DNA of 64,000 nucleotides. It comes from Bacteroidota bacterium. Its GTDB lineage: Bacteria > Bacteroidota > Bacteroidia > JABEUT01. Below, piece by piece: positions 11,087 to 64,000 of the stretch (its first letter is position 1; the number at the start of each line of letters is the position of its first letter). The stretch is taken from the NCBI GenBank assembly GCA_021823405.1, contig JAKAOA010000002.1, positions 12,434 to 76,433 of the forward strand, in the 5' to 3' direction. The translations under genes were made by a program, and so were the position numbers. Below the pieces are notes generated by a model. That model had not been told where the DNA came from. It saw only the letters and a list, made by a program, of their open reading frames with translations, and did not search any database.

Positions 11087-11183
11087 TTACCGGAATCCTT
11101 AATTGAAAATTGGTTACTGTTTGTTGAAACATTTGAACATCTTGCAGGTTCAACGCTTCATTCTGCCTTCATTTTTATTTCTC

Positions 11184-11191: not shown

Positions 11192-11215
11192 CTGCAACAC
11201 AAATGCAAACATTTT

Positions 11216-11722: not shown

Positions 11723-11797
11723 CCGTAAGACGGCTGTATACACGCCGCTTAACTATAAAGAGAACGGCGCTATTTTATTCAAAACGAAACGTCGGAG

Positions 11798-17505: not shown

Positions 17506-17556
17506 GAGATGAAGGATTAACGAAAGCAAATTTAGTAATATTTCCCCAGAGATATA

Positions 17557-17570
17557 GTGATAAATATCAC
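17557..17570. promoter_or_regulatory. Inverted repeat GTGATA-AA-TATCAC, a candidate operator in the hmgA-hppD upstream region
   Basis: 6-bp perfect arms seen in the sequence, 50-60 bp upstream of the hmgA ATG (minus strand). Confidence 0.3.
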
Positions 17571-17924
17571 AAACAAAGTGTCCGATAAACAGATTCGGTC
17601 AGGTGCTTTATAATGAATCAGGGGAAAAATAAGTAGATTATACTGGCTAAGTTGTATTTGTTAAAATTCATGGCATCGGCATAACTATCAGCCCCGATTG
17701 TAATTGGCGGCTCGTAGGGATATTTTAACAGGTTATGAATAAAATTACAAAAATTAAATGGCATATTACTGAAAAAGAACTGTTTTATTGCCAAGCTCAT
17801 CTTAATCTGTGTAATTTAGCGTCATTTTCAGGTTGTTTATAGAACATTTTCATTCAAAATACGTTATTATTAGGAGCAAAAGAGCGGATAATGAGATTTT
17901 CAAGGACAGTATTGCAATTTTAAT

Positions 17925-18560: not shown

Positions 18561-18567
18561 CCCATCT

Positions 18568-19281
18568 TCAGGGCAGTGTAGCCGATACAGGAATGATTTT
18601 ACCATTGAAATTGGCGACGCCGTTAAGCGCAAAGTCCCTTATAAAATGAGCCATCTTTGCAGGAGTCATAAGGGCGCGTTCTCCGGGAAATGCCTGCGCG
18701 AACATTTCGGTCTGCACTGCTCCAAGGCAAAGGCAGTTCACAGCTATATTTCTCCCGGTTACTTCTTCCGCCAGACATTCTGTAAGACAGCCAAGAGCTG
18801 CCTTACTCGCGCTGTAGGCGCTCAACCCCCCATATTTTTTGCTCCCCTGAAAGCCGCCCATACTGCTTATATTAACAATATGAGTGGGTTTTTCTCCCTT
18901 CCCCATATAGGGCAGCATTAAACGGATTAAATCGAAAAGAGACAATACATTAACCCTGAAAATCGCCTCAACCTCTTCACGCGTCAGTTCGTCGAATGGC
19001 TTATTTATTAGCATTCCGGCATTATTTACCAGGATATCCACCGAATTTACACAGGACAATAATTCTGGAACAAAGGACAGAGGCAGTTTATCCAGATTAA
19101 GGTCGAGCACTAAAGGATAAATGCGGGCGCCCGGATATTGTGAGTGGCATTCCCTCCGGAGCTGTTCAAGTTTAAGTCGGTTTCTTGCTATCACTACTAC
19201 TTTATGGTTGATATCTGTAGCAAACCTTTTGGCGAGTTCATATCCTATTCCACGGCTGGCTCCGGTAATTACAATATTCAT
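18568..19281 (-). CDS. SDR-family short-chain dehydrogenase/reductase
   Basis: N-terminal TGASRGIG Rossmann motif. YxxxK (YSASK) catalytic motif. Confidence 0.8.
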   Translation of the reverse strand: MNIVITGASRGIGYELAKRFATDINHKVVVIARNRLKLEQLRRECHSQYPGARIYPLVLDLNLDKLPLSFVPELLSCVNSVDILVNNAGMLINKPFDELTREEVEAIFRVNVLSLFDLIRLMLPYMGKGEKPTHIVNISSMGGFQGSKKYGGLSAYSASKAALGCLTECLAEEVTGRNIAVNCLCLGAVQTEMFAQAFPGERALMTPAKMAHFIRDFALNGVANFNGKIIPVSATLP

Positions 19282-19328
19282 TGGTTGCTTTATTAAAATA
19301 CAAATATCCGAAAATAACGATATCTCCT

Positions 19329-20186
19329 CTATACCTGTTCAGTCAGCGAGATATTATCGATAAGCCGAACATCGCCGCTAAAAGCGGCTATGCATGCCAC
19401 AGCAGATTTACCGCTCGCCTTATCTTTCACCGGTTCCAGCGTTTCGGCGTTCACAATTTCGAAATAATCTAGTTTTAGGGGTGAAACCATATTAAATCTG
19501 TCTTTAACAAATTCTTTCAGTTCCGCTGAAGTTTTTTCTCCCCACATCGATTTTATCTTAAAGAGGGTTTGAGGGATGATAGAGGCATTGCTTCTTTCTT
19601 CTGCCGAAAGCAGCCGGTTACGCGAACTCATTGCCAGCCCATCGTCCTCGCGCACGATGGGGCACGCCTTTATGATTACCGGAAGGTGATGTGTATGTAC
19701 AAAATGCCTGATAAGCACGAGTTGCTGAAAGTCCTTTTTCCCAAAATAGGCATTATCCGGTTTAATAATGCAGAAAAGTTTGTTTACTATGGTCAGCATT
19801 CCCGCAAAATGTCCCGGACGCGATTTACCTTCCATCACCTTATCAAGAATTCCGAAATCTTCGTTAATGGTGGAGTAATCGCCCTTGCGGTACATTTCAT
19901 CCACTGATGGCGCAAACAGAATATCGCATCCCGCAGAAGCGAGCATCTGCATATCATCATCGATGGTTCTTGGATATTTCTCCAAATCGGAAGGACTGTT
20001 GAACTGGGTAGGGTTTACGAAAATGCTGCATACGGTAACGTCGTTTTCCGATTTTGAACGCGTTACAAGCGACAAATGTCCGCGATGCAGGGCGCCCATA
20101 GTTGGCACAAAGCCAATACTCCGTTTGCCATTTCTGTAGGGTGACAGCGCATCCTCCGTTTCTTTAATAGTGGCGTAAATCTTCAT
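19329..20186 (-). CDS. panC: Pantoate--beta-alanine ligase. The start is moved to the ATG at 20186 (MKIYATIKE); the track start is a TTG.
   Basis: PTMGALHRGH HIGH-type motif and conserved PanC core. Confidence 0.85.
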   Translation of the reverse strand: MKIYATIKETEDALSPYRNGKRSIGFVPTMGALHRGHLSLVTRSKSENDVTVCSIFVNPTQFNSPSDLEKYPRTIDDDMQMLASAGCDILFAPSVDEMYRKGDYSTINEDFGILDKVMEGKSRPGHFAGMLTIVNKLFCIIKPDNAYFGKKDFQQLVLIRHFVHTHHLPVIIKACPIVREDDGLAMSSRNRLLSAEERSNASIIPQTLFKIKSMWGEKTSAELKEFVKDRFNMVSPLKLDYFEIVNAETLEPVKDKASGKSAVACIAAFSGDVRLIDNISLTEQV

Positions 20187-20389
20187 CGCTGTTTGAATAA
20201 GGGCTGGCAAAAGTATTTAATTTATGCGATGCTTTGAATTTGCGAATTTTGGCAAATTCAATGGTGGTCGGTATGCAATTGTGCGGCAGGAATACAAGAG
20301 AATTGAAAATAAGATAGCCGTTTCATACTTGCCACTATCTTCATAAATCACGGTCGAATATTCGACTATATTATTACAAGGTTGATATG

Positions 20390-22414
20390 TTAGTTCTTGC
20401 CATCCGGTTTAAGATTATCCGGCACTGTATTTTTGGGCTGTTCCAATTTAAGAGGTATGGATGAACTTAAAATTTTGAATTCGATGCGGCGGTTTAGTTT
20501 CATTCCTGCAGGGTTCCAGCTCCCGTCAGTATTCTTATTTTTGGCTATAGGGAATTGCGGACCATACCCCTTTGCTACGAGTCGGGTAGAATCTATACCC
20601 AATTTTATGAGGGAATTTACTACGGCTTTCGCCCTTTCGTAAGACAGCTTCATATTCATCTGATCGCTGCCCTGCGCATCGGTATAACCTGAAATCTCTA
20701 CGTTCATGCCTTTGTATCTGGTCATAATGTCGTAAAGATGCGATAACTCCGCTTTAGATTCAGGCGATAACTGGGTGCTGCCGCTCGCGAAGAAAATATT
20801 TTTCAGAATTATTTTCTCACCCACTCTTAACGGATTAAGATCGACTGCCTTATCGATTATAGAATACGCTGTATTGAAACGCACGTCTATATTCTCCGAC
20901 TCGAACAAATAATCTTCCGCGCTATAGGTAATATTATAATTCTTTCCTGACGGCAGAATGATAAGATACCTTCCGGTTGCCGAGTTCGGAACGTAAGTGC
21001 CAATAATTTCGCCTGTTTCATTATCTGTAACCGTTATAGAAATATTTTGGGGTACGGTGCTGTCCACCGCCGATTTTATAATACCTCTGTAAACCGTGAT
21101 TGCTTCAGCTTTCTTTTCCGGAAAAGTGATGCGGTAAATATCCGTTTCTCCCTCTCCGTTATCCTTAAATGAGGAGTAATAAGCTCCCTTGCCGTCAGAT
21201 GTCGGGAAGAAGAAAATATCGTCGCCGGGCGAGTTCACGGGGTAGCCCATATTTACCGGCGCACTCCAGTGACCATTGCTGTCTCTGGCGCTTGAGAAAA
21301 CATCAAAACCGCCCATAGTATTATGGCCTGTGGAACTGAAGTAGAGTGTGCTGTCGTTGGCGCTGATAAAAGGTGCGTCTTCTTCATATTGCGTATTGAT
21401 GTTTGGTCCAAGGTTCATGGCTTTTCCCCACTGTCCGTTTGGCAACAATCGGCTCATATATATATCGCGACCTCCGAAGCCGCCTGGGCGGTTACTTGTA
21501 AAATATAAGGTTTGACCATCCGCGCTGACGCTGGCGCTTGGTTCCCAATATTTAGAATCTACGTTTTCGTCCAATTTTTCAGGAGTCGACCACTGGGTTC
21601 CGTTCAGGTGCGTGGTAAAAATATCGCCTCCGTTCTCGTCGCGATAAATGTATATGGTCTGCCCGTCGGGCGAGATGCCTACTGTTGCAGAGTGCATGCG
21701 GGGCTGGTTTACAGGCGGACCAATATTGAATGCTTTGTCCCAGCTGCTTCCTTTCATATTTGCCATGTATATCTGCTCGAAGAATTTTCCTGTCTCATCT
21801 TTTTCTCCTTCGCGGCGCGAAGTAAAAAATATCTGCGCTTCATCGGCGGTAACCACGGGTGAATAATCGGGATACGGGCTGTTGATATTGCTGCCCAGAT
21901 TCGCTACTGTCATTTTTACCGGATGAGCGACAAGTTCCTTGCCCGTATTACACATCTGTATTGAACGCCTGATGGAAGCCGTCTGCTGCTTGTCTGAAGC
22001 AGTGTCTATCATGCCAAGGAATTTGTTAAAATATCCGATAGCGGAATCGAACCTATAGGAAAGATGACACGCCTTTGCCAGATAGAGATAGGCATCGGCG
22101 GGGGCATGAGTTTCCTTATAATTTCCCGGATTATACTTTTCAGATATGTCATTGCTTGCGGTTAAAAGATAGGGAATAGCCAGTTCCTGATGGGTGGGAG
22201 CGTTTATATAACATACCCCAACCTGAAAATTAATATTGTTGTTATCCACCTGCGTTTGGTGCAGGGTTAGGAAGAGCGGCAACGCCTGATCATATTGGTT
22301 GGTGTTAAATAGCGCTTCCGCCTTTTCATAATCCTTTTTAAAATCCTGCGCGGAAAGAAGAAAACTTGCCTGTAACAGGCAAAGCAGTAAAATGAAGAAT
22401 CGGTTGTTTTTCAT
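20390..22414 (-). CDS. OmpA-family outer-membrane/periplasmic protein with TPR-like and TolB-like beta-propeller repeats and a C-terminal OmpA peptidoglycan-binding domain
   Basis: C-terminal OmpA-like motif (..GYTDAQGSDQMNMKLSYERAKAV..). Repeated WD40/TolB-like segments. Signal peptide. Confidence 0.65.
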   Translation of the reverse strand: MKNNRFFILLLCLLQASFLLSAQDFKKDYEKAEALFNTNQYDQALPLFLTLHQTQVDNNNINFQVGVCYINAPTHQELAIPYLLTASNDISEKYNPGNYKETHAPADAYLYLAKACHLSYRFDSAIGYFNKFLGMIDTASDKQQTASIRRSIQMCNTGKELVAHPVKMTVANLGSNINSPYPDYSPVVTADEAQIFFTSRREGEKDETGKFFEQIYMANMKGSSWDKAFNIGPPVNQPRMHSATVGISPDGQTIYIYRDENGGDIFTTHLNGTQWSTPEKLDENVDSKYWEPSASVSADGQTLYFTSNRPGGFGGRDIYMSRLLPNGQWGKAMNLGPNINTQYEEDAPFISANDSTLYFSSTGHNTMGGFDVFSSARDSNGHWSAPVNMGYPVNSPGDDIFFFPTSDGKGAYYSSFKDNGEGETDIYRITFPEKKAEAITVYRGIIKSAVDSTVPQNISITVTDNETGEIIGTYVPNSATGRYLIILPSGKNYNITYSAEDYLFESENIDVRFNTAYSIIDKAVDLNPLRVGEKIILKNIFFASGSTQLSPESKAELSHLYDIMTRYKGMNVEISGYTDAQGSDQMNMKLSYERAKAVVNSLIKLGIDSTRLVAKGYGPQFPIAKNKNTDGSWNPAGMKLNRRIEFKILSSSIPLKLEQPKNTVPDNLKPDGKN

Positions 22415-53350: not shown

Positions 53351-53454
53351 GAACGGCATGTAAAAGTAGGACAAATCCGGGAATGCCAGATATGGAAAAA
53401 GTCAGGCAATTTTCGATTTTACTGGCAGATATTTTAATTAAGCCGCGTATCTTT

Positions 53455-53550
53455 GGGTATACACTTTTGGGGGTATTTTTTAGTTAAAAACTTGATATAC
53501 AGTATGTTAATGGTATACACAGGGTATACATTTGTATACCATTAGTATAC
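53455..53550. repeat. GGTATACC-box repeat, copy B: the 42-bp block shared with 24950-24992 plus four or five GTATAC-containing boxes in both orientations
   Basis: GGGTATACACTTTTGGGGGTATTTTTTAGTTAAAAACTTGAT is shared with copy A. GGTATACCATTAGTATACCC is the reverse complement of GGGTATACTAATGGATACC in copy A. Confidence 0.55.
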
Positions 53551-53551
53551 C

Positions 53552-54310
53552 CTATCGGGCTGTATCCTCTGCCGTCGCGAGCAAAATCTGTTCAATTTTC
53601 TTTAGCTGGTCGGGTCTTAATTTCTTTATCTCTTCCTGGCTCAAGCGCGTTTGATTAATCTGTATGTAGTTGTGTTGGTTTTCTACGTAATTTTTACTTG
53701 AACTACTCCCTGAATTTATGGCACCGGTTGCTTCAAGGAATAGTTTTATGGCTTTCATGTCGCCTCCCGATGCTTCACGGTATAATATGGCAAGTATTTT
53801 CCCGCTTACCAGTTTATAACGGTCCTTTTGTTCCAAATAGTTGGGATTATGTTCGTATTCCTTTAAATGTTTGTAAAGGGTTCTTCTGCTTACCCCCGTC
53901 ATCTCAAGCAGGTCCGATTTCCTTGGCATAATGCCGTGTTTGGCAATATACTTATTTATCGCCTGAACTATATTGGCATGGTTTGTTTCCCAAATATCGT
54001 CCTGGAAGCCGGCGTGCAGAACGGGAGCAACCCTTTCCAGAAATTCTTCCTGTTCCTCTCCTTTCAGTCGGTTTGCGTCACGGTTTATTTTATTAATTAA
54101 ATAATCCTTCTCTTCGTCGTTCAGTTGCAGGAAGTCCTTCCTTGTTATCTTTTCCTGCTCGTATAGGGCGTCTGCTTTCGCGAATAGGGCGGGACAGATG
54201 TCCTTTACCGGAGGATTGACGGTTGCAGGCTCGGAGGCATTGGAGCCGGGCGCGGCTGTTTTACCTGATACGGTTTGAATTTGTTGGCTGATGGCTTGAT
54301 TTGTTTCCAT
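53552..54310 (-). CDS. Hypothetical HTH-containing protein at the boundary of the accessory island
   Basis: Predicted HTH segment ...DLLEMTGVSRRTLYKHLKEY. Confidence 0.45.
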   Translation of the reverse strand: METNQAISQQIQTVSGKTAAPGSNASEPATVNPPVKDICPALFAKADALYEQEKITRKDFLQLNDEEKDYLINKINRDANRLKGEEQEEFLERVAPVLHAGFQDDIWETNHANIVQAINKYIAKHGIMPRKSDLLEMTGVSRRTLYKHLKEYEHNPNYLEQKDRYKLVSGKILAILYREASGGDMKAIKLFLEATGAINSGSSSSKNYVENQHNYIQINQTRLSQEEIKKLRPDQLKKIEQILLATAEDTAR

Positions 54311-54463
54311 GATGGTATGATTTTAAATGTTAATGATGACGCAAATATATACATTTAATGGCACATAATATATAATATGTTTATTTATTGAAAAAAGTAT
54401 TAAACAAATCCAATCATCTTTGGAAGATAGATTAGCAACGATAGGGTTGACTTACCCAACAAA

Positions 54464-54485
54464 AAAGCCCTATTTACAGGGCTTT
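54464..54485 (-). terminator. Intrinsic terminator hairpin AAAGCCCT-ATTTAC-AGGGCTTT (T-run on the minus strand). Copy 1 of a triplicated secA-terminator-like hairpin.
   Basis: The 38-bp block 54452-54489 is identical to 56768-56805. Confidence 0.6.
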
Positions 54486-54751
54486 AGTGTTACAGCGTAC
54501 CGGAAAAGTTCTTCAAAAGTTTCAAACTTTTCCTTCGGTTCCTTATGATGCTCCGGTAGTATTGATTTTGAAAAATGTTTTTCCCTGCCTTCTTTTCCTG
54601 AATAAATCTTTTTCTCAATGTTTGAAGCCCATACATAGCCGTGGTTACCAATCACAGTGCAAGAATAGTTTTCCCAGCTAAATAATCTTTCTATTTGGGT
54701 CTCACTAAATCCAAAATGAATTAATCTTTCATTTGTTAAGTCTTCAATCAT
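54470..54751 (-). CDS. Hypothetical small protein (93 aa), last gene of the cassette array. The C-terminus is encoded by the terminator hairpin.
   Basis: ORF only. No motif recognised. Confidence 0.3.
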   Translation of the reverse strand: MIEDLTNERLIHFGFSETQIERLFSWENYSCTVIGNHGYVWASNIEKKIYSGKEGREKHFSKSILPEHHKEPKEKFETFEELFRYAVTLKPCK

Positions 54752-54766
54752 TTAATATGTCTAACG

Positions 54767-55228
54767 TCATTGCTTTTTAATTGGTTTACCATTAGTATCA
54801 ACATCAATAGCATCATTACTATCGTCAATAAATGAGGTATAGAAATCCACCACCATATTATTTTCAAAACTAACTTCAAGAACATATTTATATTTTCCCG
54901 CCTCGCTAAAAGCATAATACGGGGCAAGAAAGTAATCAAATGTATAGTTCCCGCCATTGTGAATTATTTTATTGGGTTCTCCGAGAAATGCAAATATTTC
55001 TTTATTCGTATATTGTTTAATATTTATCCCATTAACCGATACTATTTTCCTTGTTATTGTGTCCTCTATCAAAGCACTGTCTCTGAAAAGGTTCTTTCCC
55101 AATGAATCAGCTTTCCACCTCGAAGAAAAATCACCATTGGTCATATTTTTAAAACCACCAATTAGATGAGGTTGCCCAAAAGCCACAACCGAAATGAAAG
55201 AGAACAATATGAGAAAAGCAGGCTTCAT
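54767..55228 (-). CDS. Secreted hypothetical protein (153 aa) sharing the signal peptide MKPAFLILFSFISVVAFGQ with the neighbouring MORN genes
   Basis: The first 55 nt of the CDS are identical to 55836-55890. Confidence 0.5.
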   Translation of the reverse strand: MKPAFLILFSFISVVAFGQPHLIGGFKNMTNGDFSSRWKADSLGKNLFRDSALIEDTITRKIVSVNGINIKQYTNKEIFAFLGEPNKIIHNGGNYTFDYFLAPYYAFSEAGKYKYVLEVSFENNMVVDFYTSFIDDSNDAIDVDTNGKPIKKQ

Positions 55229-55890
55229 TTTATTTCATTGCCGTTTTCATCGTAATTTTTTTGTTCCTGTAGAGTATCATTCCTGAAAAGTTTTTCACTC
55301 TTTAATTTTCCGTTTTCAAAGTACTCTTTTTCAACCCCATCTTTTTTGCTGTTCACTACTGGACTTTCTATTTTTAAATTACCATTTTCGTAATAACCCT
55401 TCTCAATTCCATTCTCTTCACCGTTCGCCCAGTGTCCTTCTACTTCCAGATTCCCATTTTCGTAATATCCTTTTAATGTTCCATTCCTTTTACCTTTTAA
55501 ATATTGTCTTTCATATTCTATTTTGCCGCTTTCATAGTATTGCCTTTCTGTGCCGGTTTCTTTTCCATTTTCATCGTAAGGAACCTCCAGGAATAATTTT
55601 CCTGTGAATTCGTCGTAAATTCTTCCTATTCCGCTCAATTTACCATTGTGGTAATTGCAAAGCATATAATATGGTGAATTGGTATCCTTTGAAATTTCTC
55701 CCCAATTATTTAGGTATTCCATCCATTCCCCTTCTTTTCTAAAAAGTTTTCGTTTGTTCTTAGCTTCAGCTTTAAATCTTGCTTCCCTGATTCTCCCGCT
55801 GTCATGGGGTTCTATCAGAGTTTTCAGAACTTCCTGCCCAAAAGCCACAACCGAAATGAAAGAGAACAATATGAGAAAAGCAGGCTTCAT
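55225..55890 (-). CDS. Secreted MORN-variant repeat protein (YwqK-family immunity-like)
   Basis: Repeats GEWMEY.., NGKLSGIGRIYDEF, SGKIEYERQYLKGKRNGTLKGYYENGNLEVEGHWANGEENGIEKGYYENGNLK. Start codon overlaps the upstream stop. Confidence 0.65.
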   Translation of the reverse strand: MKPAFLILFSFISVVAFGQEVLKTLIEPHDSGRIREARFKAEAKNKRKLFRKEGEWMEYLNNWGEISKDTNSPYYMLCNYHNGKLSGIGRIYDEFTGKLFLEVPYDENGKETGTERQYYESGKIEYERQYLKGKRNGTLKGYYENGNLEVEGHWANGEENGIEKGYYENGNLKIESPVVNSKKDGVEKEYFENGKLKSEKLFRNDTLQEQKNYDENGNEIK

Positions 55891-56549
55891 TTTATTCGAT
55901 TACCGTCCTTATATTCTACAACTCCTATTTTTTCTCCACGTTCATTATACCAAACATGCTCTCCTTCTAGCTTATCGTTCATAAATCTACCTTGACTTTC
56001 AATGTTACCATTTTTAAAATACCAAGTCCACATTCCAGTCTTTAAGCCCATTTTATACTCTCCTTCAATTTTTTTCCAACCATCAAATGATCTCCAAATA
56101 AAATTACCATTAAGTGAATCATCTTTAAGAGTACCATACCTAGTCTCTTCCTTTTGATAATCATATTCTTCAATCAAACCATTACGTTTCCCATCATGCC
56201 ATATTGAGAGTCGTATAAGTCTTCCTACGCTATCCCATTCTTTCCACTCACCTTCCTTATTATTGTTCTCATAAGAACCTTCTGACTGCTTCACCCCATT
56301 TGGATACCAGTTGCTCCATTTACCAATTAATGCCCCATTTTTAAAACAACCAACCGATTGAATTTTATTGTTAGAAAAATAGTAAGTCCATAAGCTGTCT
56401 TCTTTATTCAGTTTAAACCTGCCGATGCCTTTTAAATTATTTTTTAGGTATATTGTATCATTCTTTTTTTCAACGCCCAATGAATCCTGCTGCTGCCCAA
56501 AAGCCAAAAGCGAAATGAAAGAAAATAATATTAGTAAAGCAGGCTTCAT
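55887..56549 (-). CDS. Secreted MORN-variant repeat protein (YwqK-family immunity-like), paralog
   Basis: Signal peptide MKPALLILFSFISLLAFGQ. Repeats GEWKEWDSVGRL, NGLIEEYDY, KTGMWTWYFKNGNIESQGRF. Confidence 0.65.
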   Translation of the reverse strand: MKPALLILFSFISLLAFGQQQDSLGVEKKNDTIYLKNNLKGIGRFKLNKEDSLWTYYFSNNKIQSVGCFKNGALIGKWSNWYPNGVKQSEGSYENNNKEGEWKEWDSVGRLIRLSIWHDGKRNGLIEEYDYQKEETRYGTLKDDSLNGNFIWRSFDGWKKIEGEYKMGLKTGMWTWYFKNGNIESQGRFMNDKLEGEHVWYNERGEKIGVVEYKDGNRIK

Positions 56550-56551
56550 TT

Positions 56552-56697
56552 TATTTCATTGCCGTTTTCATCGTAATTCTTTGTTGCCCGCTTTCATTGA
56601 CGGTTTCAATTGTCTGAAACGGCAATGCAATACGAATAGGCGTAACCTTTTTGCCGTCTTTATACTTCCCTTCCCAAATAAGTTCGGTCATGATTAA
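56552..56697 (-). pseudogene. Short ORF / 3' remnant of a further cassette gene. The 28-bp TTATTTCATTGCCGTTTTCATCGTAATT at its end is identical to the 3' end of the 55225-55890 gene but is read in another frame.
   Basis: Nucleotide identity of 56551-56578 with 55229-55256. Confidence 0.35.
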
Positions 56698-56779
56698 TTA
56701 TATCTGTGTTGAATTTACGGCGGGGAAATTAGTGAAAAAAGCATTTTCAATGTGTGCTTTGCAAAATTTACCCAACAAA

Positions 56780-56801
56780 AAAGCCCTATTTACAGGGCTT
56801 T
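56780..56801 (-). terminator. Intrinsic terminator hairpin AAAGCCCT-ATTTAC-AGGGCTTT, copy 2. Probably the original secA terminator displaced by the insertion.
   Basis: Identical to copy 1. About 75 percent similar over roughly 90 bp to the secA-proximal region 63428-63520. Confidence 0.6.
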
Positions 56802-56843
56802 AGTGCAGTTCAGTATAAAATCAGTATATCTTTAGTTTGCGGC

Positions 56844-56860
56844 AGTTACTTACCGTGGCA
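56844..56860. repeat. attL core: 17-bp copy of the secA 3' terminus (reverse complement encodes NCHGK-stop)
   Basis: Identical to 63501-63517. Confidence 0.7.
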
Positions 56861-56910
56861 AAAACTATTTATACCTAATTCTATTGGATTGTAGCGTTTT
56901 GAGGTACAAA

Positions 56911-56932
56911 TAGGGTACAAAATAACTCAAAA
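56911..56932. repeat. Two GGTACAAA arm-type direct repeats (GAGGTACAAATAGGGTACAAAA), left arm
   Basis: The 22-bp string is identical to 63359-63380. Confidence 0.65.
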
Positions 56933-57089
56933 ATATCATTGGGAAAATGTTGCATAGAGTATTTCATTAGTTTGAAATTCAATTTGCTTTGAAATATTTA
57001 CCTTTTGAGAATCCGTGTTTTCTTTTGGTATTAATTTTCCCATTATCTTACCAAAAGACCTAATGGCTGATGGGGATGAATAATTCTTT

Positions 57090-57494
57090 TCAACCACTTG
57101 TAATAGTAAAAAGTTGTTTGTCTTTTTCATAAGCATATATTTTTTCAGCTATAATTAAGTAAACTATTACTTTCCAAATGCTTTCAAAATCTGAAAGTTT
57201 AAGATGTTTTTCCCTTTTTAATTGTATAAATTTTTGATAATCAGTTTCCCTAATATAATTTAATATACCGATGGTGTTGTCTATATTATTGTTAGTGAAA
57301 TATACCGCATACGCTGTTTTACCTGTACCCTTATCACCAATAATAAAATACGTAGATTGTTTCTTTATTTTATATAAAAATTCATTCTCTATAAATATTT
57401 TATTGAATATCTCTCTATTTTCTTTTTTTTTGTAATTCTCAGCATCATTAAATCCGAGATACAATTTTCCAATTGGAATTTTTTGCTTTTCCAT
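57090..57494 (-). CDS. P-loop NTPase (Walker A GDKGTGKT). Apparently disrupted: the reading continues in the +1 frame as ORF 56936-57136.
   Basis: Walker A motif. The overlapping out-of-frame ORF shares sequence through a homopolymer-rich segment at 57095-57130. Confidence 0.45.
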   Translation of the reverse strand: MEKQKIPIGKLYLGFNDAENYKKKENREIFNKIFIENEFLYKIKKQSTYFIIGDKGTGKTAYAVYFTNNNIDNTIGILNYIRETDYQKFIQLKREKHLKLSDFESIWKVIVYLIIAEKIYAYEKDKQLFTITSG

Positions 57495-57496
57495 AT

Positions 57497-58399
57497 TTAA
57501 TAAAATTTGATTTTATTCTGAATCAAATAAGGTTCTATCCTGTTTTTAGCGAGTTTTACATAGTCAGGACTAATATCGTAACCGACAAAATTTCTTTCAG
57601 ATTTTAGTGCAGAAATAGCAGTCGTCCCACTACCCATAAAAATATCAAGAATATTATCTCCTTTCAATGAATATAGCTGTATAAGACGATAAGGTAATTC
57701 TTCAGGAAACGGTGCAGGGTGTCCAATTTTCCTTGCACTTTCCGTATTCATGCTCCATATTGATTTTGTCCATTCCATGAATTGCTCTTTGGTAATAGTA
57801 TCCTTCTTCCCATTGGCTTTTCTTTGATAATCGCCTTTTGAAAATACTAAAATATATTCGTGTGTATCTCTTAATACCGGATTAGTAGCACTTTTCCAAC
57901 TACCCCAAGCCATTGAAACACCTGCACCTGCACCTTTAACCCAAATTATTTCGCCCCTCATTTTAAAGCCAATATCATTCATCATTTTAGATATATGGTC
58001 TGAAAGTGGAATATATGGTTTGCGTCCAAGATTGGCGACATTAATACATACTCTTCCCCCATTGACTAAAACCCTGAAAGTTTCAGTAAAAGAATTTTTA
58101 AGCAGGGTTAAATATTCTTGCAAAGTCAAATTATTGTCATATTCTTTTGTAACGTTATAAGGAGGTGAGGTAATCATTAAATGAATAGAATTGTCGGGTA
58201 ACTCTTTCATGTTTTCCGCCGTTCCTAAAATAAATGTATTTAAGTATTCTTTTGGAACTGAATTTTCGTTTGTGTTAATTTTCTTTTCTCCATTTATTAC
58301 AGAATACAGTTTAGAATTGTAAAACTTAGAGCTATCATGGTTTATACGTCCCCCTGTTCCGAATGAACTGGTCTTTGTGCCTGCTATTCTTGTTCCCAT
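57497..58399 (-). CDS. DNA methyltransferase, beta-class amino-MTase (motif IV SPPY precedes the C-terminal FxGxG), likely N4-cytosine specific
   Basis: MITSPPYNV catalytic motif. C-terminal DIFMGSGTT SAM-binding motif. Confidence 0.75.
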   Translation of the reverse strand: MGTRIAGTKTSSFGTGGRINHDSSKFYNSKLYSVINGEKKINTNENSVPKEYLNTFILGTAENMKELPDNSIHLMITSPPYNVTKEYDNNLTLQEYLTLLKNSFTETFRVLVNGGRVCINVANLGRKPYIPLSDHISKMMNDIGFKMRGEIIWVKGAGAGVSMAWGSWKSATNPVLRDTHEYILVFSKGDYQRKANGKKDTITKEQFMEWTKSIWSMNTESARKIGHPAPFPEELPYRLIQLYSLKGDNILDIFMGSGTTAISALKSERNFVGYDISPDYVKLAKNRIEPYLIQNKIKFY

Positions 58400-59031
58400 A
58401 ATTCAATCCATCTTTTGAAAGGTTTATATTCAATAGCTTCTTTATGCCAATTAATTGCAATTTTTAATGTTTCAGGTTGCGACAATAAATATTTCATTGC
58501 TTTTCCGGTCATTTCCACACCACGAGGGTTTGTCCCTTCCTTTGGTAATTTTATGTATTCCTTACGTCCTATTGTTTCAAGAGCTTTAATTTGCGTTTCT
58601 TTTGGAATGTAATAAAACCCGCCGCCGTTACTCCAGTTAATTTGAATAAAAATCATGTCGCATCCAGGATTATATTTTGCGCTAAACTCCTTTGCTTTTG
58701 CAGCATCAACAGTCCAAACCAACTTTACTCCATTTACCGCTCCTGTAATTGTCTTTATTGAAATAGGGCAACCAAATACCTTAACGTCCATTTCTGTTTC
58801 GGTGGTTGGTATTTCAGTTTCAACATTTGTAGTACCAAATTTATATAAAAGAAATGCAACTATTATCCTTTCTCTAATTGTTCCAACTTCCATTCCAATT
58901 TTACCAGCTCTTGAACTTTCAAGTTCGGCAATATGAAATAATTTTGGAAGTGTATTTTGAATTTTTAATATGGTCTCTTTTTCTTTAAAAATACCTTGAA
59001 TATTTGCCTTCATCGTGTAAATATTTTTCAC
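58384..59031 (-). CDS. Candidate type II restriction endonuclease partner of the methyltransferase (uncharacterised, 215 aa)
   Basis: 16-bp overlap with the MTase start. Possible (D/E)xK segment EMDVK. No other recognisable domain. Confidence 0.4.
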   Translation of the reverse strand: MKNIYTMKANIQGIFKEKETILKIQNTLPKLFHIAELESSRAGKIGMEVGTIRERIIVAFLLYKFGTTNVETEIPTTETEMDVKVFGCPISIKTITGAVNGVKLVWTVDAAKAKEFSAKYNPGCDMIFIQINWSNGGGFYYIPKETQIKALETIGRKEYIKLPKEGTNPRGVEMTGKAMKYLLSQPETLKIAINWHKEAIEYKPFKRWIELWEQE

Positions 59032-59289
59032 AAAGTAAGCAAAATTTATCCAAAATAATTTCTTTCTGTTAATAAATATACCTATGAACTAAGCATTAAC
59101 CCGCCCCCCTTCATAATATTGCACATTTTCCAAACGTAAATCTGCCGCCAAATGAAAATAATAATTCTTTTTCCCGAAAATAGAAGGTGCAATAATATCC
59201 TCCGATTATTCCACCCCGCCCTTATCAAAAAAATACCCTGCCCCGCCCTGTACGGTTTGGGTAGTAATTCTTTTTCACAAGGTCTTTGA

Positions 59290-60357
59290 TTAATTTAAAA
59301 CCGTGTCAATACAGTTTTCTAACAGGGATTCCAGTTCCGGCGGCTTTGAAAAGCCAATAAGCGGAAAATCTAAGTCATCATTAATATAGTCGCCCGTTTT
59401 CGGGTCTAAGTGCCATATTTTATAATCCCCTACAGGTGTGAATGTTACTTTTTTGGGCTGTTCAGGTAGAGTAAAACCAAAACCTTCAAAAACGTGCTTT
59501 TTATCCAGTGCTTTTAAAATATTATAAAGTGCGTGGGCGTATATTGTAGGGGCTGCCATTCCTTGCAATTTTTTATCATTATCCGGCTCGGTGAATATTT
59601 TTCCGCAATACTTAATTAATTCAATTAACGCTCCTTGCATATTCCATACTGGCTTTACCTTTTGTGCTCCTGGGTTTGCATATTTCAAAGTCCATAGTTT
59701 ACACCATTCCTTTTTAAGAGTGTCGCCTATTTCCTTATTCTTAACTATGATATGGAAATGTGGGTTGTAAGTATGCTTTTCAGGGTTAAATCCACACTCT
59801 AACGTCCTTATCCCTATTAACTTTTTACATTTTCCTTTTTTATAACCTCTGTCATATTTGTCAATGATTACAGCAATAGCCCGACACATACCGTCAATAT
59901 ATTTTTTTAAGTTTTTGACTTTTTGCGCTTTTACTGTTAGTGTTACAAAATAAGCGTTTCCCCATTCGTTTTGAAAATAGGGATAGTATCGGTTCAATAA
60001 GTCAGCTTTGCGGTTACCGCAACATAACGGACAAAATCGCAGCTTACAATATTTCCCGTGTAGCTTTCCCCCAGTTGTATAGATTTTACCTAAACAATGG
60101 TAAGCGTTCCAACACTGTTTAATGAAATCATAATCCCTGTATTCTTTTGCCACGTCAATAAGTTTTAGCACTAAGGCGTTACTAATCATTCTCCTTTTAG
60201 CCAACTTTTGTAACCCTGTATTGTCGGCAATATCTTTTCCTTTCCCCTTAACTATTATTACAGGGTTTCGGGAAGGTTTGACATATAGAGGTGTACGGTG
60301 AACTGCTAATGTATAGATTTCCTTCCCCAAAGGGTTTCGTTTTCGCTCTATTCTCAC
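59290..60357 (-). CDS. rep: Rolling-circle replication initiator / HUH endonuclease with a Cys-rich zinc-finger-like segment
   Basis: Three RCR motifs in order: FVTLTV, HTYNPHFHIIV (HUH) and LIELIKYCGK (YxxK). Cys cluster CKLRFCPLCC. Confidence 0.7.
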   Translation of the reverse strand: MRIERKRNPLGKEIYTLAVHRTPLYVKPSRNPVIIVKGKGKDIADNTGLQKLAKRRMISNALVLKLIDVAKEYRDYDFIKQCWNAYHCLGKIYTTGGKLHGKYCKLRFCPLCCGNRKADLLNRYYPYFQNEWGNAYFVTLTVKAQKVKNLKKYIDGMCRAIAVIIDKYDRGYKKGKCKKLIGIRTLECGFNPEKHTYNPHFHIIVKNKEIGDTLKKEWCKLWTLKYANPGAQKVKPVWNMQGALIELIKYCGKIFTEPDNDKKLQGMAAPTIYAHALYNILKALDKKHVFEGFGFTLPEQPKKVTFTPVGDYKIWHLDPKTGDYINDDLDFPLIGFSKPPELESLLENCIDTVLN

Positions 60358-60359
60358 AG

Positions 60360-60692
60360 CTACCTTCTTTTACCCTTTACATAGTCCTTTGCTTCGGCGG
60401 CTATTTCTGTAACCGTTTTTTTACGCCCAGCCTTTATATATTCCATCAAATCTTGCCTTGAGAAATACAATCGGTGGGAACGCTTACATACTGGGATTTC
60501 AGCTTTGTGTACTTTGGTGTACAGGGTAGCTTTAGAAAGTTTTAGAAACTCTGCGGCCTGCTCAATGGTTAAAAGCTCATCGGCTTCGGGCTGAGGCTCA
60601 CCACTCCTTTCAAGTAATAACCGCTTTATCTCACTTACTTCATTAGTAAGCTGGGTAACGGCTTGGGGTAAATTTTCAAATGTGATTTCCAT
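60360..60692 (-). CDS. Excisionase-family helix-turn-helix DNA-binding protein (xis-like)
   Basis: HTH LTIEQAAEFLKLSKATLYTKVHKAEIP typical of Bacteroidetes mobile-element excisionase/HTH-17 proteins. Adjacent to int and rep. Confidence 0.65.
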   Translation of the reverse strand: MEITFENLPQAVTQLTNEVSEIKRLLLERSGEPQPEADELLTIEQAAEFLKLSKATLYTKVHKAEIPVCKRSHRLYFSRQDLMEYIKAGRKKTVTEIAAEAKDYVKGKRR

Positions 60693-60765
60693 TGTACTAT
60701 CAGTTTTAAATTTGATAGTGCAACAGTATAGGGGGCTTTTAGGGGCAACAATAGGGGCGTACGCC

Positions 60766-62184
60766 CTATTTTAGTTTTTGGTAGTCGTTTTGTACCGTTT
60801 CTTTATGCAGGTGTGCCGTATAGCGTTCCTTATTTTCCGTAGTGTTTTTAAGCAATGAACTGATATTACCCTTTACTGCCCTGCCATCTTTATCAGAGTT
60901 AAGCCACTTGCCAATTTCCTTGTTCAGTTTATATTTTGTCTGCAAATGGTTTTTCTCTAAATGCTTTAAAAAGCCCAAATAATCAAACATTGCTATACAG
61001 TAAGGTAGTTCATTTGAGCTTATCAATTCTACCAACTTTTCTTTATTTTCTGCCGTTAATTGCTTGACCATTGGTAAATCAAAGAAGCCATATTTACCAA
61101 ATACAATCTTTAATTTATCCGCTTTCGTTTCTGTTTGCTTGGGCGGTGCGGGTTTTAATATGGGAATAAGTTCATCAATAAACCTTTTTTCATCAGCATA
61201 CCATTTCTTTAACATTTTCCTGTATCGGTGTTCCTCATTGGGTGAACTATTTTTATACCCTTGTTGAAGTTCCAATTTCCTATTGTTTATTATGAGTTCC
61301 AGTTTGATTTTATTTGCATCCGTAATAAGCCCCTTTTCGTATAATTTCAACCCGTTTATCTGCGTTAAAAGATTATCAGTTAAGCTTATTAATGCTTCAA
61401 ATAGGCTGCCTTTTGTATGCAGCTTTGCTTTTGCAAATCCACTATACTTGTTTACCTCTGGCACACTGTTCAATATAGGTAATTGATTTTCAAAATGCTG
61501 TTTAAGGGGGCTGAAAAAGCTTAATTCAAAGGGGAATATCCTAAGCCAGTCCTGATAAACCTTGTATAAAACATTCAAATCAGTTGATGTTGCAGTCGGT
61601 TCTGAAATATCTATTCTATGTGGTAGCTCGCTTTGAAATAGCGTCTTTGAAGGCTGATTGGCCTCTGTTACGGTTTCTTCTGTGATAGAGTACTTGTCAA
61701 TAAATTCAGTCAATTTTTTCACTTTAGACAATTCACCCTGAGTTAAGTCGCCTTTGGGCTTTTTAATAAGCTTTTTTACTTTATCTAAATACAAGTGCAG
61801 CCCTACGGCTGGCTGCCCAAAACTTGTAACATTATACTCAATATAGTCCGTTATTTCTTTATACCAATTAGGTGAATCTATCTGTTTAGAAATATGGTAT
61901 TCAGTATATGAAAGCTGCTTAATAATCTTGTCAGCAATACCATTATAGTTATCTTTCAGAAACCACCACTTACCATCGTATTCTTTATGTATTGCGCAGC
62001 AATTTGGGAATTTCTCAAACCATTTTACTGCCTCATCATAAACGCCTTTATGAAACGGACAGCAATTAGGTAACTGCTCTTTTGTTTCGGGATTGGCGGG
62101 GGGTTCATAACCTGCGGGAGGCTTTACCTCAAATGCTTGAATAAAAAAGTTTGCAGCATCAATTTCAACAAAGGGTTTGTCCAT
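60766..62184 (-). CDS. Hypothetical 472-aa element protein with Cys/His cluster CCPFHKG...CCAIHKEY
   Basis: ORF between int and xis. No recognised domain. Confidence 0.4.
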   Translation of the reverse strand: MDKPFVEIDAANFFIQAFEVKPPAGYEPPANPETKEQLPNCCPFHKGVYDEAVKWFEKFPNCCAIHKEYDGKWWFLKDNYNGIADKIIKQLSYTEYHISKQIDSPNWYKEITDYIEYNVTSFGQPAVGLHLYLDKVKKLIKKPKGDLTQGELSKVKKLTEFIDKYSITEETVTEANQPSKTLFQSELPHRIDISEPTATSTDLNVLYKVYQDWLRIFPFELSFFSPLKQHFENQLPILNSVPEVNKYSGFAKAKLHTKGSLFEALISLTDNLLTQINGLKLYEKGLITDANKIKLELIINNRKLELQQGYKNSSPNEEHRYRKMLKKWYADEKRFIDELIPILKPAPPKQTETKADKLKIVFGKYGFFDLPMVKQLTAENKEKLVELISSNELPYCIAMFDYLGFLKHLEKNHLQTKYKLNKEIGKWLNSDKDGRAVKGNISSLLKNTTENKERYTAHLHKETVQNDYQKLK

Positions 62185-62195
62185 TGCAATGTTCT

Positions 62196-63311
62196 TTACA
62201 AGTCCAGTTTTATTTTATCAGCCGCTTCCCGTTTCGTTTGGTCAATAATCTTAGCGTAAATCATAGTTGTTTTTAGTTCACGGTGTCCCAGTAATTTTGA
62301 TACCGTAAATATATCAGTTCCCTTACTAAGCTGTAATGTTGCGTAGGTGTGCCTAAAGCTATGAAAGGTTATATTTTTTGTAATGCCCGCTTTAAGTACC
62401 CAGCGTTTTAAATGAAAATTCATAAATGCAGAGTATTGTAGCCCCTCAAAAACGCTTTCATCAGGTAGCCCAGGTTTGCCCAATATATTATACGCCTGTT
62501 CTGAAATTGGTAATACCTCAACCCCCTTTGTTTTCTTTTGCCTGAAACGCAAATAATAACCTTCGGCCTTGCTATGCTGTACCTCTGCCCAAGTAAGCTT
62601 TTGAATATCTGAAAATCTTAACCCTGTAAGCGAAGCAAATAAGGCGGCCTGTTTAAGTAATGGTAAACTACATTCGGTTTTTGCCAAAGTGTTCAATTCT
62701 TCCATTGTAAGAAACTGTCTTTCAGTTTCAGCCTCCTTTATTCTTTCGACTTTTGCACTAATATCAGATTTTATCCGCCCGTCTTTGTAGGCTTGCTTTA
62801 AAGCCGCTTTTAATTTGTTAAAGTATGAAAAGGCCGTATTCTGCGATATAGGTAGCTTACTTCTTATTCGTGGTTCTTTTAGAAGGTATGCTTTGAAGTC
62901 ATTGCAGAATTTCGGGGTAATGTCTGTAAACCGTATAGTACCCCCGCTAAATTCTTTTAAGTAATGCAGGGCGCAAAGCCATATTTCACGGTTTCGCTGG
63001 TTATGTTTATCAGCTAATTCTTTAAAGTAGTCAACAAAATTAGCGTTAAGGTCATTCGTAGAAAGAAACCCATACTGACCGTTTTGAATTTCAATTTGTC
63101 GGGTTGCCCGTATATTTTCTGCAAGGGCTTTTGTATCTATGTTATGCTGTTTGTCAAAGGGTGTCTTTGGCTTATCATACAAATGAAGCCCTAAAAACTC
63201 CCTTCGTGTAAGTTCTCCCGTGTCAGGATGAGTTATAGGTGGGTAGAAATCTAAATACAGGCTTTTACGGTTGCCTGAAATGTCTTTTGTTCTTAGTTTA
63301 ACTTTTGTCAT
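62196..63311 (-). CDS. int: Tyrosine site-specific integrase (phage-integrase family)
   Basis: C-terminal catalytic region HSFRHTYATLQLSKGTDIFTVSKLLGHRELKTTMIYAKI (H-x-x-R ... Y). Confidence 0.9.
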   Translation of the reverse strand: MTKVKLRTKDISGNRKSLYLDFYPPITHPDTGELTRREFLGLHLYDKPKTPFDKQHNIDTKALAENIRATRQIEIQNGQYGFLSTNDLNANFVDYFKELADKHNQRNREIWLCALHYLKEFSGGTIRFTDITPKFCNDFKAYLLKEPRIRSKLPISQNTAFSYFNKLKAALKQAYKDGRIKSDISAKVERIKEAETERQFLTMEELNTLAKTECSLPLLKQAALFASLTGLRFSDIQKLTWAEVQHSKAEGYYLRFRQKKTKGVEVLPISEQAYNILGKPGLPDESVFEGLQYSAFMNFHLKRWVLKAGITKNITFHSFRHTYATLQLSKGTDIFTVSKLLGHRELKTTMIYAKIIDQTKREAADKIKLDL

Positions 63312-63329
63312 GGCTTAAAGTGTTATTGA

Positions 63330-63379
63330 GGTACAAACGAGGTACAAAAAATAATTATGAGGTACAAATAGGGTACAAA
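63330..63379. repeat. Four GGTACAAA arm-type direct repeats immediately upstream of int (right arm)
   Basis: GGTACAAA at 63330, 63341, 63361 and 63372. Confidence 0.65.
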
Positions 63380-63435
63380 AGTAAACAAAATAAGCAACTA
63401 TTGGAACAAAACAGGTATTAAATATGAGCAATAAA

Positions 63436-63458
63436 AAAGCCCTCTATTAAAGGGCTTT
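63436..63458 (-). terminator. Intrinsic terminator of secA (stem AAAGCCCT / AGGGCTTT, loop CTATTAA, then TTTTTTAT on the minus strand). Copy 3, the variant hairpin.
   Basis: Located 45-70 bp downstream of the secA stop. Confidence 0.65.
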
Positions 63459-63500
63459 ATTGGGGTTTACTATAAAATTAGTATAAAACTACTTTGTGTT

Positions 63501-63517
63501 AGTTACTTACCGTGGCA
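63501..63517. repeat. attR core: 17-bp direct repeat overlapping the secA stop codon
   Basis: Identical to 56844-56860. Confidence 0.7.
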
Positions 63518-64000
63518 GTTCTTATATTTTTTCCCCGAGCCGCATGGGCAAGGGTCGTTGCGCCCCACTTTTTTTTCGGCTTTTGCCGGCTGCTGTTGTT
63601 TCGGCGAAGCGCCCGGAGCGCCGCCTGACTGTTCGTCGCCGGTGCGGTTGGTTTGCAGTTCGGGTTCTAATTCCCTTGTCCTTACTTCCTGAACAGATTG
63701 AGGCGCCTGCGAGAAAACGGCATTTTTCAGCAGAAAGGAAGCCATGTTTTTATTCATCCTCACCAGCATCTGGCTGAACAGGTTGAAGGACTCAAACTTA
63801 TATACCAGCAAGGGGTCCTTCTGTTCGTACACTGCATTTTGAACCGACTGTCTCAAGTCGTCCATCTCCCTAAGGTGTTCCTTCCACTCGTCGTCCATCA
63901 CGGCGAGGATGACCGTTTTTTCAAGTTCCTTAATAACCTCTTTTCCTTTACTTGCGAACGATGTTTCGATGTTTGCCATCACAGGTATCACGCGCAGCCC
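63503..64000 (-). CDS. secA: Preprotein translocase SecA, C-terminal part (gene continues beyond the window)
   Basis: C-terminal zinc-binding tail ...[19 protein letters not shown]. The frame is open to the window edge; the track start at 63991 is an internal GTG. Confidence 0.85.

Follow-up and report, generated by a model that had tools for sequence, protein, structure and literature searches.

A probable site-specific integrative element with a Rep_1 initiator at the 3' end of secA and its relatives in Bacteroidota

Next to the 3' end of secA on a metagenomic contig of a Bacteroidota bacterium (JAKAOA010000002.1) lies a block of low-GC DNA bounded by two identical short repeats, and the question raised by this locus is whether the block is a mobile element and how it came to lie at the end of a protein-coding gene. 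The analysis covered a stretch of 64,000 nt (positions 12,434 to 76,433 of the contig; hereafter the window), whose features are collected in Table 1; loci and contigs used in comparison carry L numbers. The block is, with high confidence, a 6,657-bp site-specific integrative element whose integrase recombined an attachment (att) site with the last 17 bp of secA.

Target gene and attachment sites

The core 17-mer AGTTACTTACCGTGGCA was found in two exact copies in the window, and no third ungapped copy was present there at up to three mismatches. As direct repeats the copies bracket 6,657 bp of low-GC DNA (one core copy counted), about 6.7 kb in which all genes lie on the minus strand. The secA open reading frame (ORF) has its stop at 63503 and the C-terminus reads ...KKYKNCHGK-stop, and the SecA on the parent metagenomic contig is complete, with 1095 amino acids (aa) and an intact C-terminal SEC-C domain. 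The gene stays intact after the insertion because the element brings a copy of the 17 bp encoding NCHGK and the stop. The GC content of the element is 35.2% versus 44.0% for window bases 1-53400, the low GC extending left beyond the element to about 53.4 kb (36.4% GC). A preliminary description of the locus had claimed a 17-bp repeat at both ends, an overlap of the right copy with the secA stop (NCHGK-stop) and a higher AT content; the repeat proved to be exact and unique to the two ends, and the ORF end and the GC values bear out the other two claims. Its concern that the 17-mer might be a common motif was looked at in the window, where only the two copies were found.

That the repeats are coincidental and bracket ordinary chromosomal genes is hardly conceivable. 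The 17-mer is native secA sequence in other taxa, which speaks for coincidence, but against the two copies found the shuffles gave an expectation of 0.00 chance matches at up to two mismatches and 0.08 at up to three. Furthermore, the second copy lies where the layout of related elements predicts, about 42 nt past the arm-site pair, and the discontinuity in GC content coincides with the repeats.

Unoccupied sites were found outside the species. In three metagenome contigs (L090 and L091/L092; SecA 67% and 55% identical) secA closes with the identical 17-mer and no element follows, as had been proposed to be looked for in the preliminary description. In L089 (SecA 84% identical) the unoccupied end has 14 of the 17 core bases, with TGCCACGGTAAGTA at the stop and a Tim44-like gene next. 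Related species with SecA 82-84% identical showed no synteny downstream of secA.

The octamer GGTACAAA occurs nine times in the window against 2.4 expected, with four copies in the integrase-proximal cluster and two in the distal pair (Table 1), and the 23-mer TGAGGTACAAATAGGGTACAAAA, containing two octamers, is identical at both ends of the element. The integrase gene starts 190 bp from the core. In all eight relatives with close integrases, GGTACAA arm repeats were found at both ends in the same layout and the arm cluster adjoins the integrase gene. A counterpart of the distal pair is found some 45-70 nt from the distal core, both in the relatives and in the circular attachment site (attP) of L102. 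In elements with a different integrase another repeat replaces the GGTACAA motif; that of L036 and L093, TTGTGCAAA, is unlike the GGTACAA type. The arm repeats thus change together with the integrase, which is what binding sites of the arm type would do, and the octamers are presumably bound by the integrase. The arm-type reading had already been proposed in the preliminary description and gains from the conserved layout and from the change of repeat with integrase. Its four octamers at 63330-63379 were found as described, the left pair, placed at 56911-56932, was about 10 bp off, and its 22-mer identical at both ends was measured as the 23-mer above.

Between core and arm sites the element bears a spacer with a hairpin, which now follows the secA stop and would act as a terminator; in the mnmE-type relatives described below a hairpin is similarly placed. 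A second spacer and hairpin lie outside the element, beyond the distal core. The repeat outreaches the 17 bp: facing away from secA it goes on imperfectly, with 77% identity over 61 nt, and takes in the terminator-like hairpin. When the 88-nt stretches adjacent to the two cores were aligned, 62 of 90 columns were identical, with a score of 31 versus -10.6 +/- 5 for shuffles. From the ends of the element the attP junction would read ...CTTTGTGTT-AGTTACTTACCGTGGCA-AAAACTATT..., or in an alternative extent ...ACTACTTTGTGTT-AGTTACTTACCGTGGCA-AAAACTATTTATACC..., and the predicted empty chromosomal site (attB) ...TTTAGTTTGCGGC-AGTTACTTACCGTGGCA-GTTCTTATATTTT.... On integration the integrase would join the att site of the element to the last 17 bp of secA, with the element's own spacer and hairpin following.

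The targets of the relatives place secA in a wider context. Each of the eight closest integrases (51-66% identity) lies after an ORF with the end ...FCIGK (CIGK in L057, with only the ORF end on the contig), and MnmE was confirmed by Pfam for both ORFs tested (L011 and L050). Among the Reps with long context, the closest (L099, 65% identity) is likewise located at mnmE, a gene that is not present in the 64-kb window. The layout of the mnmE group begins with the mnmE stop inside the core TTTTGTATCGGAAAGTAAC and some 100 nt of spacer, frequently containing a hairpin, continues with a cluster of three to four TTGTACC, the integrase gene, other genes and cargo, and ends with one or two TTGTACC and, about 45-50 nt beyond these, the second core copy. 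The element of the window has exactly this layout, but with the secA core TGCCACGGTAAGTAACT.

The mnmE core TGTATCGGAAAGTAAC resembles the secA core TGCCACGGTAAGTAAC, with 11 of the last 12 bases identical when two bases past the stop are counted (C GGN AAG TAA CTA), because MnmE (C-I-G-K-stop) and SecA (C-H-G-K-stop) both end C-x-G-K. Elements with an integrase of about 25% identity are flanked by 43-46 bp repeats of tRNA-Val, tRNA-Lys or tRNA-Asn 3' ends. Since the closest integrase relatives target mnmE and the end of mnmE is close to that of secA, secA is most likely a secondary site captured by the lineage, and thus probably an exceptional target of an mnmE-type integrase. The direction of the switch, from mnmE to secA, would follow from the distribution of targets, not from a tree. 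The two cores provide a concrete, testable example of how such a change of target could come about in an integrase.

Circular forms were found among the relatives. Two sequencing runs gave contigs of 7,869 bp with 30-nt terminal overlaps (L102 and L103), which are exact rotations of one 7,839-bp circle. The order on this circle, TTGTACC twice, the core TGTATCGGAAAGTAA, the TTGTACC cluster and the genes HTH-Int-U441 (a helix-turn-helix, HTH, protein, the integrase and the protein U441), is that of the predicted attP. The contig L083 has a 127-bp terminal overlap with a gene spanning its ends. With a Rep_1 backbone, L093 forms a 9,447-bp circle; the gene over which it closes (238 aa) is uninterrupted in other samples. 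Of the tRNA the circle has only a part, and in three other samples the contigs end within the tRNA-like stretch. The circular form looked for after the preliminary description is thus present, with predicted attP, in relatives, and was not seen for the present element. The description's central claim, a site-specific integrative element, agrees with relatives at mnmE and tRNA 3' ends with direct repeats, with their attP-bearing circles and with the unoccupied secA cores elsewhere.

Gene content of the element

The genes reported in the preliminary description (integrase, 472-aa protein, HTH protein, Rep, restriction endonuclease, SPPY methyltransferase and disrupted NTPase) were all recovered in profile searches (Table 1), and the identifications of the integrase, HTH_17/excise, Rep_1, ThaI and N6_N4 proteins reach or exceed curated cut-offs.

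Table 1. Features of the element and its surroundings in the window.
Feature	Position	Strand	Evidence or remark
Decayed remnant of earlier related element (tentative; boundaries not established)	53419..56755	-	36.4% GC; gene fragment, MORN genes, GGTATAC repeats
Displaced spacer and terminator-like hairpin outside element	56756..56843	-	hairpin about 56780-56801; about 70-77% identical to element-borne copy
Distal core copy	56844..56860	.	exact 17-bp match
Distal arm-type pair	56903..56921	+	two GGTACAAA, 11 bp spacing, 42 nt from core
66-aa ORF without family match	56936..57136	-	none in Pfam, NCBIfam, PHROGs
Sll1717-family P-loop ATPase, N-terminal fragment, 134 aa; decayed cargo	57090..57494	-	NF047389 positions 1-104/454; phrog_13260 positions 2-120/497
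Cognate DNA methyltransferase, N6_N4 class, SPPY motif	57497..58399	-	PF01555 E 7e-47; PADLOC MTase_II E 7e-120, positions 6-301/312
ThaI-family type II restriction endonuclease	58384..59031	-	PF15514 E 1e-90, profile positions 1-202/203; PADLOC REase_II E 9e-79
Rep-to-endonuclease intergenic region; candidate iterons/origin	59032..59289	-	three GGGCGGG and TTTGATAAGGG stretch; motifs not conserved in relatives
Rep_1 (pUB110/pC194 superfamily) rolling-circle initiator, 355 aa	59290..60357	-	PF01446 45.5 bits, cut-off 33.2, E 8e-12
HTH_17 excisionase-like DNA-binding protein, 110 aa	60360..60692	-	PF12728 E 2.6e-13; TIGR01764 'excise' 33 bits, cut-off 28.8
Intergenic region upstream of HTH-rep operon; candidate operator/origin	60693..60765	-	TAGGGCGTACGCCCCTA near-palindrome, repeated GCCCC; putative function
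U472, conserved 472-aa all-helical protein	60766..62184	-	N-terminal CCPFHK...CCAIHK motif
Tyrosine integrase, 371 aa	62196..63311	-	PF13102 and PF00589; phrog_1 integrase
Integrase-proximal arm-type cluster	63330..63379	+	four GGTACAAA in two pairs, 11 bp spacing within pair
Element-borne spacer and terminator-like hairpin, now after secA stop	63413..63500	-	stem about 63436-63458; read from sequence
secA-proximal core copy (crossover region of attachment site)	63501..63517	.	one of only two window copies
secA 3' part, target gene	63503..64000	-	last 5 codons and stop inside core repeat

The integrase is of the Bacteroidota Phage_int_SAM_5 type, and LRFSD, HSFRHT, LGHRE and IYAKI, read by eye, stand at the positions of the catalytic R, HxxR, H and Y. 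The reading frame of the HTH_17 protein overlaps the start of rep, and among the PHROGs the protein also has matches to several phage families of excisionases and DNA-binding proteins. The HTH_17 protein may serve as a directionality factor, excision being then carried out by the integrase together with it.

The third protein, U472, had no match in Pfam, NCBIfam, PHROGs or PADLOC, and a profile search of the sequences in PDB yielded no hit with E under 0.2. AlphaFold predicts an all-helical fold with confidence (mean pLDDT 83.8). In a Foldseek comparison with viral models no hit had E under 0.4, and the protein has no informative structural neighbour. A survey of one genome per GTDB species gave 200 confirmed chromosomal loci with Rep, of which 79 distinct loci were kept. 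A search with the family profile found a U472-type gene next to rep in 13 of the 79, the remaining loci having unrelated genes of 416-501 aa in the same position. The closest U472 homologues (50-66% identity) lie outside Rep_1 elements, in an HTH-Int-U472-HTH block followed by a D5_N/DUF5906 helicase or an AAA_25 protein, plus a DUF6371 protein. Because the closest homologues sit in elements of this other kind and so few Rep loci have the gene, U472 belongs with the integrase and not with Rep.

The Rep_1 protein has the CxxRxCxxC, HUH (HFH) and KYxxK motifs, the positions of which are invariant or nearly so across 36 homologues; H200, Y250 and K253 are invariant in these and H202 is conserved in at least 90%. 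No match was found among the PDB sequences, and the nearest plasmid Reps in PLSDB are 28% identical and located on 5.6-kb Bacteroides plasmids. Kazlauskas et al. 2019 place one family member, A0A0D8J774 (Draconibacterium), in their 'pUB110-like' cluster. Their 'Bacteroidetes' HUH cluster was considered as the present family and rejected, the one traceable member being this 'pUB110-like' protein. In the proposed cycle, Rep_1 would nick an origin and maintain the excised circle by rolling-circle replication.

The candidates for such an origin lie on both sides of the HTH-rep operon. Upstream of the operon, the relatives have their own element-specific repeats in the position of the near-palindrome. 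Of the eight GGGCGGG in the window, three are crowded into 150 bp (59100-59248) of the AT-rich rep-to-endonuclease spacer. After rep there is also a near-match to the nick sequence of pC194-type plasmids, TTTGATAAGGG, which is not conserved in relatives, and T[TC]GATA downstream of rep was not conserved in the 79 loci. As a separate observation, a 20-nt imperfect direct repeat (59017-59036 and 59264-59283) brackets the spacer.

The cargo consists of a restriction-modification (R-M) pair and a decayed ATPase gene. The endonuclease and methyltransferase genes overlap by 16 bp, and both proteins cover their profiles end to end. The SPPY motif of the methyltransferase suggests N4-methylcytosine as its product. 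ThaI cuts CGCG, and the element contained no CGCG site versus 6.3 expected, while its flanks contained 142 versus 125 expected and are thus not depleted. The absence is consistent with carriage of a CGCG-specific ThaI-like system, and the family name together with this absence makes CGCG the likely specificity of the pair. The pair would serve both as host defence and as an addiction module. The 66-aa ORF next to the ATPase fragment is possibly out-of-frame debris of the truncated ATPase gene.

The gene content also bears on a reading of the block as a provirus or phage satellite, such as a single-stranded DNA phage or a capsid-hijacking island with Rep serving packaging-linked replication. 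HUH Reps also serve single-stranded DNA phages, the element is small, and the HTH protein has the phage PHROG matches mentioned above. On the other hand, no capsid, terminase or other structural gene was found with Pfam or PHROGs, and the U472 model matches no viral structure. Rep had no match among 50,697 phage records and only one close relative among 2.9 million IMG/VR contigs, and the cargo of the relatives consists of efflux, R-M and abortive infection (Abi) genes. This reading is therefore very improbable.

Related elements, an older remnant and the mobility of the present copy

Altogether 488 Rep homologues were detected, and all the organisms named for them are Bacteroidota. The 79 loci sit on contigs of chromosomal size or on other contigs, and represent the classes Flavobacteriia, Chitinophagia, Saprospiria, Cytophagia and Bacteroidia. 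The only one of them outside the phylum, L005, is a Rep on a short contig (1,940 bp) binned as Candidatus Saccharibacteria, which is probably a binning error. In about 50 loci rep is directly preceded by an HTH_17 gene, and several, including L011, L013, L028 and L075, have the complete order Int-U472-HTH-Rep.

The bounded relatives are 8.5-13.6 kb long with varied cargo, mainly R-M, Abi and Fic genes, and one with metal-efflux genes. L011 carries RND and cation efflux genes and MerT, L028 a type I R-M system and an AAA_13 protein, L036 Abi_2 and a type ISP enzyme, L050 Fic and a type ISP enzyme, and L051 a restriction-type endonuclease domain (RE_endonuc). In the scan of the cargo genes of the five bounded relatives, neither Mob nor conjugation or capsid genes appeared. 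Sister elements with a D5_N/DUF5906 or AAA_25 protein plus a DUF6371 protein form circles of 7.8-8.6 kb (L083, L102/L103), and one is integrated at mnmE with SIR2/STALD cargo (L106, 1477-16328).

Two loci of the family have an unusual structure. In L072, a metagenome-assembled genome of Cyclobacteriaceae, a 3.6-kb HTH-Rep segment is present twice (8679-12269 and 17418-21008) with 99.9% identity and 8.7 kb apart, which may represent a tandem array of elements. In L100 a U501-HTH-Rep block (5629-8647) is flanked by a histidine kinase/LytTR pair and by a 2671-aa SprB-like gene. The 5.6 kb upstream of the block hold no integrase, and this family member seems to be stranded or decayed.

The low-GC DNA beyond the distal core may hold an older element of this kind. 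A 93-aa ORF at 54470-54751 (minus strand) matches residues 1-89 encoded by the 501-aa gene preceding HTH-Rep in L100 and L101 with 71% identity, and is apparently the truncated remainder of a gene from an older related element. Where the low-GC block begins on its left side there are five GGTATAC motifs (53456-53551), four of which, two direct and two inverted, have the exact 11-bp spacing also seen in the arm sites; the cluster resembles arm sites for a different integrase. The simplest reading is that an earlier element of the same family decayed at the same site and the present element inserted beside it; alternatively, the attP region of the element may once have captured sequence from downstream of secA.

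Some further observations were made in this region. By eye, TTTTACTGGCAG at about 53419-53432 is a possible gapped core remnant, which is not statistically secured. Three tandem paralogues of 153, 221 and 220 aa (54767-56549, minus strand) have near-identical signal-peptide-like N-termini, MKPAFLILFSFISVVAFGQ, and the two longer ones have MORN_2 repeats. The region also holds a 252-aa protein with weak HTH matches. A 46-aa ORF (56551-56691, minus strand; MTELIWEGKYKDGKK...PFQTIETVNE...) somewhat resembles the N-terminus of some DNA methyltransferases, had no Pfam match at E up to 1 and may be a further gene fragment.

Several results weigh against a mobile element at secA. No circular form or empty site was seen for the element or the species, and three of three contigs with the flanking MORN gene carry the element, though these are maybe not independent samples. 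Functions for transfer, such as a relaxase or a coupling protein, were not identified in the element. The pC194-type nick CTTGATA is not present in the non-coding parts of the element, its sole copy there lying inside the methyltransferase gene, and no motif near rep is conserved family-wide: k-mer enrichment, exact and with one mismatch, was not above shuffles either upstream of the HTH gene or downstream of rep. Finally, the truncation of the ATPase cargo gene means that some decay has occurred.

Some of these results would suit a fixed island, once mobile and now unable to excise or replicate. In addition to the truncated cargo and the presence of the block in all three contigs known for the organism, older related remnants adjoin, so that such elements do decay at the site, and L100 is a relative without integrase. 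The integrity of the present copy argues the other way: its two cores do not differ at any of the 17 bp, the 23-mer with the arm sites recurs unchanged at either end, no truncation against homologues is seen in the integrase, U472, the HTH protein or Rep, the motifs of Rep being intact, and the R-M pair covers its profiles end to end. A fixed island is therefore unlikely. The integrative element preferred here may still be active in its present copy, and its excised form may replicate as a rolling circle; movement between cells is presumed.

For the transfer step a further explanation, compatible with the integrative element, has to be weighed. The element could be an integrative and mobilizable element (IME) in the strict sense, in which Rep_1 mainly or additionally acts as a conjugative relaxase, nicks an origin of transfer, and the circle is moved by a conjugative helper of Bacteroidota. 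Rep_1 initiators of three Firmicutes plasmids double as relaxases in mobilization by ICEBs1, and most streptococcal IMEs encode relaxases related to rolling-circle initiators (PMC5704250, PMC5357655). Neither the element nor the scanned cargo of the five bounded relatives has a canonical Mob gene, and the spread of the family over five classes of Bacteroidota implies that some transfer route must exist. However, in the reviewed cases such relaxases use TcpA-type coupling proteins of Firmicutes, and all known Bacteroidetes IMEs use canonical MobP-type relaxases (PMC5704250). Conjugation genes were not seen in the window, although no search was aimed at them, and the exchange of Rep_1 for D5_N or AAA_25 helicase modules in the sister elements fits replication better than transfer. 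A relaxase role of Rep_1 is on this evidence a tentative proposal, less likely than not.

Comparison with known elements and meaning

Integration at the 3' ends of protein-coding genes, including trmE/mnmE for SGI1, is established (PMC3218068, PMC5704250, PMC5357655). Among the known systems, the actinomycete integrative and conjugative elements (AICEs) combine an integrase, an excisionase and a rolling-circle initiator, which is RepSA in pSAM2, and pSAM2 has been assigned to the pC194 family (PMC3218068). The present element is like pSAM2 in having an initiator that would replicate the excised circle and in its site-specific integration with flanking direct repeats (PMC3218068). AICEs differ in having an FtsK-like Tra protein for transfer of double-stranded DNA, in being limited to Actinomycetales and in usually targeting tRNA genes, whereas the element has a Rep_1 (PF01446) protein that is not of the RepSA profile and a host in Bacteroidota. 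No FtsK-like or Tra domain was found in any ORF of the element in the Pfam scan.

Also the streptococcal IMEs, such as IME_Sga2069_rpmE and IMESag-rpsI, are small, have a tyrosine integrase and a rolling-circle-type Rep and target the 3' ends of conserved protein genes, ribosomal-protein genes among these, some of the elements with R-M or toxin-antitoxin cargo (PMC5704250, PMC5357655). Their Reps are of the Rep_trans, Rep_2, PHA00330 and Viral_Rep families and not Rep_1, many have TcpA, and their hosts are Firmicutes. The element would work like AICEs and streptococcal IMEs but belongs to neither, having no Tra or TcpA, another Rep family and a host in another phylum.

SGI1 and MGIVchHai6 target the trmE/mnmE 3' end, as do the relatives of the element, and have a replication gene for the excised form (PMC5704250, PMC7826253). 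They are gammaproteobacterial elements with unrelated gene content, SGI1 with a Rep_3 theta replicon, and the present copy is in secA; the mnmE target common to SGI1 and the relatives is most readily explained by convergence on a gene end that is conserved. NBU1, NBU2, Tn4555 and Tn4399 share with the element the host phylum, the integrase lineage and the form of small integrated elements with arm-type sites. Their excision requires small DNA-binding proteins. These small elements of Bacteroidota use canonical relaxases of the MobP type, some with a primase (PMC5704250), while the present element has neither and has Rep_1 instead. No Mob or relaxase domain was found in it in Pfam and NCBIfam scans, and the lack of a Mob relaxase excludes it from the NBU/Tn4555 types. 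The plasmids pUB110 and pC194 have the same Rep_1 with cysteine motif, HUH and KYxxK, but the present clade has to date been found integrated or as integrase-carrying circles, and the canonical nick was not found. The 10K genomic island of Riemerella was considered as the same element and rejected, as it sits at tRNA-Arg and is without Rep.

The preliminary description had called the combination of genes not a standard named family. This stands for Bacteroidota, for which no IME with a rolling-circle Rep is named in the review (PMC5704250), and fails in so far as an integrase, an excisionase and a rolling-circle Rep were already known together in AICEs and streptococcal IMEs. No description of the Bacteroidota family, of the 472-aa protein or of secA targeting was found in the open full-text literature, a scope outside of which most subscription journals fall.

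The general picture of integrative elements is left unchanged, and what is added to it is one family, a new target gene and one conserved protein, U472. Three features go beyond the ordinary: that the family is so large and apparently undescribed, the modularity of its replication genes, and the plausible switch from mnmE to secA by way of the similar C-x-G-K-stop ends. A more far-reaching picture is possible but doubtful as a whole: the family would be phylum-wide and so far undescribed, with a conserved module (integrase, U472-type protein, HTH_17) combined with a swappable Rep_1, D5_N helicase-primase or AAA_25 protein, and would be a main small vehicle for defence and resistance cargo. In this picture the integrase could jump between unrelated essential genes ending C-x-G-K-stop (mnmE to secA), U472 would be a new accessory of recombination or transfer, and Rep_1 a possible relaxase.

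The family is chromosomal in at least 200 species, with a rolling-circle Rep or a swapped-in helicase module in place of a canonical relaxase. Its defined attP layout and compact integrase could serve as an integration tool for Bacteroidota. Given its breadth and its defence cargo, the family could be an overlooked route by which defence genes are spread in environmental and gut Bacteroidota.

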